From NCBI RefSeq assembly GCF_018350175.1, contig NC_058381.1, positions 57,908,001 to 57,972,000 on the forward strand: a stretch of 64,000 nt of DNA, read 5' to 3'. A model generated the notes under the pieces. It was not told the origin of the DNA. It searched no databases and saw only the letters and a program-made list of their open reading frames with translations. Each line of letters starts with the position of its first letter. Position 1 is the first letter of the stretch. Source of the DNA: Felis catus (Eukaryota). This document shows positions 32,101-35,100 of this stretch, piece by piece. Position numbers and translations under genes: made by a program.

Positions 32101-35100
32101 AGCTCCATCCACGGTATATAATGCCGATCACTACTTCACGCGTTCGTCGTATGGACCTACCACGTCTTGTTTATTCACTGACAGACATGTGGGCTGTCCG
32201 CCTTTTGACAACTGTGAATAGGGCTGCTGTGAACATCCGCGTACACGTTTTCGTTTGAAAGCTCTTGATTTCTTATTACTAAGACCAGTAGACAAAGCCG
32301 TTGGACACAATTGCATACATTCCAAATGCTTACTTTCACTTTGCATATTTAGCTCATCATAGACCAGTAGCAAACAGGGTAGGGCTCCCAGTATCCCCAG
32401 ATCGCAGGCCAAGCAGCCCTGCTCTGAGCCACCTTGACTATTTTTTGGTAACCATTGTTTTCCTATTACAAAAGGAGCATATGCTTACTCAAATAGATTT
32501 ACAAAATAAAATCCTCAATAATTCCACCACCCATCGTTGACCAGAGGGTGGCTGATGGGACCCTGCCATTTTTTAAAGTGCTGCCACAGCCTGGAATAAG
32601 GTCTTCAGCCTTTCTGGGACCGTGTGGTCCCCCTGCTGTATCTTGCATAAGTCCCTAAGGACTCTGGTCTCCACTTCCTCTAATCCCCCTGACATGTGCT
32701 CTGGATGGGTCCCCGGGCCTGGGGTTTCTGTCTGTAAGAGTTTGGATACTTTCAGTTGCAAATAATAGAAACTGAGTTTCTTCAGTATCAAAAAGAGGAC
32801 GTTTTAATGAGGTCTATTCATTGACGTCCTCCCGTGTTCCTGCCCTGGGGTCCAGAGACTGGAGGGCTGGTGGTGTTCACCCTCGGTGGGGAGGCTGTGA
32901 GTCACCTCGTTCTCTGCCCCTGCACCCAGCTGCCCGTCACCAGCCGCGGGGTCCACTCCTGGAGAGAAACAGTTCCTCTCTTTCTCAGGGTCAGCTGAGT
33001 TTTTTAATATCTGAGGGAGACACGCCCATGATAGTGCATGTCTACAGCTGTGTGGTTTGAATCACTCTTCAACTCAGAACGTAAATTTCATAGTCTTTTC
33101 TTAGTTCTGGCACAAAAGGAATCTGGCTGGTCCATGTATACTTTAAGAACTCTTGAGAAGGGGCGCCTGGGTGGCTCAGTCGGTTAAGCCTCTAACTCTC
33201 GGTTTCAGCTCAGGTCATGATTTCACAGTTCATGAGATCGAGCCTCACGTCAGCCTCTGTGCTGACAATGCAGAACTTGCTTGGGATTCTCTCTGTCTCT
33301 CTCTGCTCCTCCCCTGCTCGCTTGCGTGCTCTCTCAAATAAATAAATAAACTTTTTTTTAAAAAAGGACAAATGAATAGACCTACTAATGCAGAAATTCC
33401 ACTGCTGAGAGTGCTTCCTTCAGACCCCCACACACAGTGGTGACGTGTGCACGGGGCTGATCACGGCAGGGTTACTTGTGCTAACCCAGCCCAGATGCCT
33501 CCATTCAATGAATATTTACTGGGTGCCTGACATGTACTGGTCACTCATTTTGTGCACGGAATACATCAGTGAGCAAAGCACACAAACCCCTGCCCGTGCA
33601 TCGATGTGAATCTTTTTCTCTTTCTTATTTTATTATTTAAAAATAATTTTTTTAACTTTTGTTTATTTTGGAAGAGAGAGAAAGCTCGTGCACGTACGCA
33701 CAAGCAGGGGAGGGGCAGAGAGGAGAGACAGAATCCCAAACCGGCTCCTGGCCATCAGCGCAGAGCCTGGTGCAGGGCTCACACTCACAAATTGTGAGTT
33801 GTTGTTTTTTTTTTTTTTTTTTTTTTTTGAGCAGCAGGCAAAGGTTTACTAGAGTATAAGATCAGAAAGCAAGAGGAGTATGAAAGCTCTCTTTACAGAG
33901 AGGGGGGCATTCAAAAGTGAATGCCCCACAAGTTGTGAGATCATGACCTGAGCTGAGATCAAGAGTCGGAGGCTTAACCGACTGCGCCCCCCCTGGTGCC
34001 CCCCTTCTTACTGTATTATTGAAATACAGTTGACTTACAAGGTATATTAATTTCAGGTGTATAACGCAATGATTCAACAGTTCTCTACATGACTCTGTGC
34101 TCATCATGAGAAGTGGAGTCACCATCTGTCACCTTCCACGTTATCACAGTGGTATTGACTGTATTCTCTGTCTTTCACTGTGATTCTTTTTTTTTTTTGG
34201 AGAGACAGAGACAGAGTGCAGGTGGGGGAGGGGCAGAGAGCGAGGGAGACACAGAATCGGAAGGAGGCAGGTTCTGAGCCGTCAGCTCTAACTCATGAAT
34301 CGAGAGATCATGACCTGGGTCGAAATAAGACGCTTCACTGACGGAGCCACCCAGGTGCCCTGGTCGTGAGTCTTAACGGGGCAGGGGAAGAGGACAAAGT
34401 CAATGCCGTGGTCCGTTAGAAGGGACAAGCGCTCTGGCAGTATGGAGCAGGCAAGGCGGGTGCTGGACAGTGGGTGTTAGGGTGGCCAGGGTCGACCCCT
34501 AGAGGAAGGTGTGCTGGGCAGGGTTGATTTTGTAGAGCCCCAGGGCTTTTGGGGGTCGTGTGTCAGATGCTGTGGACTGAATCTTTGTGCCCTCCCCAGA
34601 TTCACATGTTGAAGCCTTAACCCTTAGGGTGGCTGTATTTGGAGTGATTGGGTGAATTGAGGTCATAAGCGTGGGGTCCCGACCTGGCTGGATTCTTAGA
34701 AGAGACGCCCGAGGGCTTGCCTCCCTAGAGAGGCCAAGAGCCCCACAGGCCCACCCAGAAGAGGCGCGTATGCACCCAGTGAGCAGGTGGCCACCCGCCA
34801 CCCTAGGGGAGGGCCGTCCCCAGACACAAGCCCCTCTGGCGCCTGGATCTAGGCCTTCTGGGACCCAGAACTGTGAAACGTAAGTGTAGGTTAAGCCTCC
34901 GCACCCTGTGGTATTTGGTCACAGCAGTGGGAGCCAGCTCGCGCAGGAGCCCCGGACGGACTTGAACCTGAGAGGGAAAGGTGCGCCCAGGACTGGCTCA
35001 CACCTGTGGCCGGAGGGCACTTGGAAGAAGTAGGAAAAGCCGCGAGGGCCGCCCTTGCTTCCAGCGGAGAAGGGGAGGGACATCCAACAAGGGAGTCGCG

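Follow-up and report, generated by a model that had tools for sequence, protein, structure and literature searches.

Structure of the insert and its host repeat

The window, that is, the whole stretch of Felis catus DNA that was analysed (64,000 nucleotides), contains a SINE on its minus strand (33612..34004, bounds approximate), which is recognised from its sequence and from the very deep multi-copy cover at 33934-33999. We take this repeat to be a CAN-SINE. It is broken by a short insert lying in the same orientation, and all the features that a sequence-only reading had listed around 33799-33927 were found in place on the minus strand when the sequence was inspected. The body of the insert (33829..33926, ~97 nt) represents the R region of an LTR from a class I ERV, extending from the predicted +1 to the polyA site, and it is up to 93% identical to copies that are embedded in LTRs. 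Unlike those relatives the insert has neither U3 nor U5 beside R, and copies of this kind are referred to here as R-only.

On the minus strand the body is followed by an A tail of 30 nt (33799..33828), composed of A24 and then CAACAA, and the whole is bounded by a 13-bp TSD, the upstream copy of which (33927..33939) pairs with the downstream copy (33786..33798) with one mismatch and a score of 12.5, the 95th percentile of the null being 9. The A tail of about 30 nt and the TSD of 12-13 bp that had been described are thus confirmed. An A tail and a TSD of 7-20 bp are expected of an L1-mediated retrocopy and both are present; of the L1 hallmarks that had been claimed these two stand, but the nick site AT|CTCA departs from the usual TT|AAAA and LINE-1 is only the presumed enzyme. 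The 5' junction (33840-33956) is spanned by independent contigs in two organisms, X1 from organism A with 0 differences and X12 from organism B with 1 difference, and this junction is therefore not an assembly artefact. These contigs end short of the left flank and the A tail, X21 did not reach the insert, and the six runs recorded as RNA contained only 0.13 of the words.

Two hairpins are predicted towards the 5' end, the terminal one with a stem of 10 bp (33904..33927), where 7-9 bp is usual in the family, and the second one with a 6 bp stem and a 4-nt loop (33887..33902). Both are found in the minimum-energy and in the centroid fold of the window copy, which has a z-score of -4.16 and was not equalled in stability by any of 200 shuffles. 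The second hairpin therefore stands as it had been read; the perfect 10-bp stem is also present, but it is partly specific to the window copy and its first G is shared with the TSD. Indeed base 33927 serves both as the fourth G of the 5' end of the insert and as the final base of the upstream TSD copy; it may be either TSD or cap-derived and is uninformative by itself. At the position of the polyA signal (33845..33850) the window copy has AGTAAA, which ends 16 nt before the start of the A tail, as had been noted; this hexamer is, however, a decayed form of the AATAAA of most family copies (AATAAA in 50 of 66 R-only copies, AGTAAA in the window copy alone). A check against Rfam had also been proposed, and in a search of 33000-34700 no family reached the threshold, by which a known structured RNA was rejected. 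The window copy by itself is inert, with no sign of function.

Source of the insert

The genome (2.4 Gb) was searched with the insert, 40 of 770 candidates were scored and 30 loci were fetched. Among the 40 scored of the 770 candidates the best non-self match reached 93%. At most of the 30 fetched loci the match sits between a conserved block with a TATA box upstream and another conserved block downstream, and the comparison of LTR-embedded copies all against all (n=70) gave a repeat of ~600 bp. One locus, L192 (G000:C15:54227000-54236900), is a degraded provirus with gag and protease remnants in broken frames. Its Gag_p30 remnant (PF02093, E=3.5e-7, above the cut-off) is placed between two LTR matches ~5 kb apart, the protease match (PF00077) being weaker and below the cut-off. 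Its primer-binding site is presumably tRNA-Pro-like. The U3 and U5 flanks of the relatives and the Gag_p30 remnant between paired LTRs identify the insert as an LTR R region from a class I ERV, which agrees with the origin proposed for it by the sequence-only reading (transcription start to polyA site), and on this sequence evidence the source is a class I (gamma-like) ERV.

A provirus of the same LTR family was also observed in near-identical inverted duplicates (L009-L014, L195 and L196, at G000:C47:50.16-50.21 Mb and C55:28-46 kb). L195 and L196 are 99.8% identical over 4 kb; of the LTR matches, C47 holds four and C55, a small contig, holds two. This arrangement is either a palindromic amplicon or an assembly duplicate.

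Census of R-only copies

Copies of the R region were counted with two motifs. The mid-R motif, an exact motif of 28 nt that is blind to both ends of R, found 94 copies, all of which were fetched and classified. They comprise 70 U3-R-U5, 19 R-only, 3 U3-R and 2 R-U5 copies with clearly separated class scores, so that about one fifth of the copies of the R region (19/94) are R-only retrocopies. The 3'-anchored motif, consisting of the R 3' end followed by A and blind to the 5' end, found 80 copies and its reversed control 0. In order to place their 5' ends, these 80 tailed copies were aligned to nine real LTR copies. It was found that 62 start within ~10 nt of +1 (58 of them at -5 to +6), 11 extend into U3 and 7 begin inside R; in other words, a stretch of 16 nt holds 62 of the 80 ends, compared with 11 spread over U3 (~440 nt) and 7 within R. 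The 3' end is also common to the R-only copies, lying ~16 nt past AATAAA.

Together with 7 copies seen only in the mid-R set, the 62 make 69 distinct R-only copies. The tail motif recaptured 12 of the 19 R-only copies of the mid-R set, which gives a capture-recapture total of ~98, a probable underestimate, as both motifs pick up the less decayed copies more readily. The sequence-only reading had foreseen a SINE-like family derived from an LTR, for which random 5' ends would have been damaging. What we found is a common 5' end in 62 of the 80 tailed copies, and the family, with at least 69 copies, is real in this sense, but its members appear not to propagate themselves. Base, TSD and box counts were made on 66 of the 69 copies, three being dropped for want of an anchor.

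Start site, extra 5' G and target site duplications

The exact TATAAAA box is retained in 43 of the 70 LTRs, and in 38 of these 43 it is placed at -30/-31. A G precedes +1 in 51 of 66 R-only copies, compared with 12 of 70 LTR copies (Fisher p=1.2e-12), and at each of the six positions further upstream G is found in 3-16 of the 66 R-only copies. In the LTRs the base before +1 and +1 itself read CG, TG or CA in 45 of 70 copies, which is a decayed CpG. An untemplated 5' G in L1 and SVA insertions has been read as a copied cap, according to the available part of the source (PMC4859970), and the extra G of the R-only copies is, as a sequence sign, what would be expected of a copied cap. Since 12 of the 70 LTRs hold a templated G at that site, some of the G's in R-only copies may be templated.

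A TSD above the 95th percentile of the null, which was built from 300 flank swaps, was found for 32 of the 66 R-only copies and for none of the 70 LTR copies; the other 34 R-only copies have no TSD beyond the null. The TSDs of R-only copies measure 7-21 bp. In 13 copies the TSD ends one base before +1, and the leftover base is G in 11 of them. A crude script found a nick start of the pyrimidine|AA type in 12 of the 32 TSDs.

Parent locus, subtypes and age

A near-identical parent was sought for seven R-only copies and found for one. This copy, L108, has a tail of 19 A's and is identical at 96 of 97 positions to an LTR on another contig, L134, with which it has six rare alleles in common and is grouped with support 100/99. 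When the genome was searched with L108, L134 came first at 99%, followed by a match at 91%. At the 5' edge the parent reads C-A and the daughter G-A. No primer-binding site or ERV interior was present in the flanks of L134 that were examined, and L134 is thus apparently a solo LTR. The pair implies that at least one aged, apparently solo LTR made R RNA after it had gained private mutations. For the other six copies, the window copy included, the best match was 84-94%; among these, L198 was considered as parent of L036 (93%) but was rejected for its differences at several sites. Most R-only copies could derive from proviral 5' LTRs or from early solo LTRs.

A tree of R was built from 131 sequences (70 LTR copies chosen by exact motif and 61 R-only copies, five being omitted for length) over 97 columns, and its bootstrap is unsettled. 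The two classes are mixed in it, with 37 label changes against a shuffled mean of 43.9 and 16 of 500 shuffles as low. No bootstrap tree unites the R-only copies as one group, no alignment column is diagnostic for them, and at the subtype markers both classes show both alleles. The tree would therefore argue against a single master copy, although it resolves little. The mean pairwise distance is 0.138 for R-only copies and 0.126 for LTRs, and the TSDs have 15 mismatches in 421 bases, a count that is biased low. Most R-only copies are thus of considerable age, roughly ten to thirty million years at the felid rates that we presume.

Hairpins across the family

Seven core pairs of the terminal stem form in 82-97% of the copies. 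The innermost pair forms in 27-34% of them and arises in the window copy from a C-to-T change, and the outermost pair forms solely when the extra G is present. Folding z-scores had a median of -2.18 among the 24 LTR copies sampled and of -1.17 among the 18 R-only copies sampled. The hairpins belong to the viral R region, the perfect stem of the window copy being partly particular to it, and the high pairing across copies follows from shared ancestry.

Proposed origin and alternative explanations

We consider, with a probability of about 0.85, that the insert in the window belongs to a set of at least 69 R-only copies, which would have arisen by LINE-1 reverse transcription of a ~97-nt capped and polyadenylated LTR RNA. 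The copies themselves display the LTR origin, the fixed 5' and 3' ends, the A tails, the TSDs, the extra G and, in one case, the parent. According to this proposal Pol II would start at +1 of the LTR, and since the nearby polyA site would go unsuppressed in a solo LTR or a leaky proviral 5' LTR, cleavage of the R RNA would follow at the R/U5 border. A solo LTR is without any downstream splice donor. The R RNA would be made in the germline or early embryo, and L1 ORF2p would prime on the A tail, copy the whole of the short RNA and read the cap as G. The R-only copies have lost the U3 promoter, they have no Pol III boxes (A box 0/66, B box 0/66) and TTTT is found inside 59 of the 66, so they are likely dead ends, and the family would have grown from LTR sources only, belonging to several subtypes and over a long time. 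On these features the R-only copies are not a classical SINE.

The same copies might be explained as 5'-truncated processed pseudogenes of long RNAs, proviral ones or host mRNAs ending at the LTR polyA site, with the reverse transcriptase stopping at the hairpin. Such a route is known from HERV-W, as far as the accessible part of the report goes (PMC5016936), and the 11 of 80 tailed copies that extend into U3, as well as the R-U5, short interior, U3-R and A tail of locus L193, are longer copies of the type that it would leave; in the window copy, moreover, the extra G is ambiguous. Nevertheless the crowding of 62 of the 80 ends into 16 nt, with so few across U3 and inside R, speaks against truncation, and a stalled enzyme would be expected to stop at the 3' base of the hairpin, which the copies contain in full. 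The supposed stop would also have to fall 30-31 nt past the TATA box and next to a G that is missing from most LTRs and, for L108, absent from the parent L134. We regard this explanation as unlikely.

The absence of both Pol III boxes and the frequent TTTT speak likewise against an R-only element that turned into a self-propagating SINE from one or few R-only masters. Small R-only clusters without a sampled LTR (L036/L147/L185, support 100/85; L149/L158, 99/86) and the slightly stronger clustering of the R-only label than in the shuffles are in its favour, and subsets of R-only copies may have one origin, the tree having few columns and an unsettled bootstrap. However, the R-only copies are spread over the LTR subtypes without a single bootstrap group or a diagnostic column, and their pairwise distance is no lower than that of the LTRs, which makes such masters very improbable. 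Hardly more credible, and the least probable of these explanations, is that selection maintains the R RNA as a functional, structured small RNA, the copies mirroring its abundance. The strong fold of the window copy and the frequent formation of the seven core pairs would suit it, but pairing of this kind follows from common ancestry, z-scores across the family are modest, the window copy is partly alone in its perfect stem, and Rfam gave no match.

Two other origins were rejected. Retroviral strong-stop DNA consists of R-U5 without an A tail, and the layout in the window differs from it. A SINE-plus-R dimer moving as a unit would have the SINE tail directly upstream of R, and with a strict motif this was seen in just 3 of 66 copies, the junctions differing by eye.

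Comparison with known elements

The closest counterpart to the cat copies are the TINEs of tarsiers, which the available parts of the reports describe as Pol II transcripts mobilised by LINE-1 that run from a TATA-driven LTR start to the LTR polyA signal (PMC5059674; Noll et al. 2015, PMC5322556). TINE1/2, from LTR77_TS, number 29,041 copies and TINE3, from a MER83B-like LTR, 1,668 (Schmitz et al. 2016, PMC5059674), and TINEs have been presented as tarsier-specific. The cat unit is likewise a short, A-tailed, LTR-derived Pol II unit with a TATA-driven start and its own polyA signal, attributed to LINE-1; its copies are dispersed, mostly full length (62/80) and provided with an A tail, and 32 of 66 have a TSD beyond the null. 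TINE units were made from LTRs after the mobility of these had ended, and in the cat the same was found for one pair, L134 and its daughter L108, out of seven copies searched. The cat family differs in belonging to another mammalian order, in deriving from several LTR subtypes of what would be an independent LTR family (this without direct sequence comparison) and in its low number: the thousands typical of TINEs are not reached, with at least 69 copies and an estimate of ~98. Moreover its extra 5' G has been quantified and a parent locus identified, neither of which is given in the portions of the TINE reports available to us. As the host is a felid, descent from the tarsier TINEs seems unlikely.

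Processed pseudogenes of HERV-W are also of the L1 type, with an A tail, a TSD of 5-15 bp and an end at the R/U5 border (Grandi et al. 2016, PMC5016936, available part), and a review, in the part at hand, terms HERV-W the sole HERV group so mobilised (PMC5537654). They have the arrangement R-U5-interior-U3-R, which the window copy does not fit, the cat family being mainly R alone. In the portion of PMC5016936 available, Pavlicek et al. 2002 are cited as reporting many HERV-W copies of 0-0.5 kb, and these could include R-only ones. One cat locus does have the HERV-W layout, L193 (G000:C1, ~144451690-144452530, minus strand), with R-U5, a stretch resembling a primer-binding site, ~270 nt of interior, a G-rich tract, U3-R and an A tail. 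Its two R copies are 74% and 91% identical to the window copy, a divergence that would fit an RNA transcribed from a provirus that had already aged and lost internal sequence.

In retroviruses the polyA site of the 5' LTR has to be suppressed, and Schrom et al. 2013 (PMC3694450, in part) describe this suppression as leaky for foamy virus and MoMLV; in a foamy-virus reporter ~40% was cleaved, giving short RNAs polyadenylated in the 5' LTR (PMC3694450). There the start-to-polyA RNA from one LTR comes from exogenous viruses in cell culture, whereas the cat family is known from genomic fossils alone. SVA, whose SINE-R derives from HERV-K, resembles the cat unit in being a Pol II product with an LTR-derived polyA signal, L1 mobilisation and an untemplated 5' G (PMC4859970, in part), but SVA is long and composite and has source elements of its own, while the cat unit is a single 97-nt LTR segment without a promoter.

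Significance of the family

The literature was searched for a carnivore counterpart and none was found, a search made without the name TINE, so that a report may have been missed; R-only copies are also not reported in the available parts of PMC4373062 (felid ERVs), PMC13756887 (canine retrotransposons) and PMC11359688. The mechanism has already been described, in the literature found only for the tarsier TINEs, and the cat family works like a TINE and would be a new case of this rarely reported kind. With it, TINE-type elements would have originated in mammals a second time, independently. At its low copy number individual source LTRs are still traceable, and the extra G and the parent-daughter pair provide sequence evidence for a capped Pol II template and for an aged LTR source, steps that the text available gives as probable for TINEs. 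A traceable low-copy family of this type, with a cap sign and a known source LTR, would interest retroelement specialists. In addition, since 19 of 94 R copies are retrocopies, repeat annotation may be biased in its solo-LTR counts and in the ages it gives to LTRs.

We are tempted to suggest, at slightly less than even odds, that TINEs are a general and overlooked class, in which LTRs with a short R and a strong polyA signal would shed capped germline RNAs of ~100 nt that LINE-1 inserts as R-only copies, misread as LTR fragments. A screen for R-only copies with an A tail, a TSD and the extra G is applicable to any mammal, by which this generality is directly testable. If the suggestion is true, R-only fossils would give the start and polyA sites of extinct ERV promoters to the exact base and would name aged solo LTRs, such as L134, that were recently active in the germline.

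Atypical and nested copies

Some copies depart from the common structure. The tailed copy L040 (G000:C13:51924738-51924830, minus strand) retains the seven initial bases of R, after which both hairpins are missing, possibly by a skip of the reverse transcriptase across the structure. In the R-only copies L080 and L126 the A tail starts early, a few bases past the polyA signal or directly at it, which suggests alternative cleavage or internal priming. At L194 (G000:C21:102680716 and 102685039) a tailed U3-R copy and a tailed R-only copy are located 4.3 kb apart on the same strand.

The daughter copy L108 (G000:C18:7428307-7428403, minus strand) is part of a triple nest with one outer TSD, in which the R-only copy lies in the tail of a SINE and a second SINE lies in the tail of R. 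Two further R-only copies, L033/L051 (G000:C1:156782090-156782430) and L073, were split by a later SINE. Their nesting is the reverse of that in the window, which indicates that the SINE and the R-only families were active in overlapping periods.
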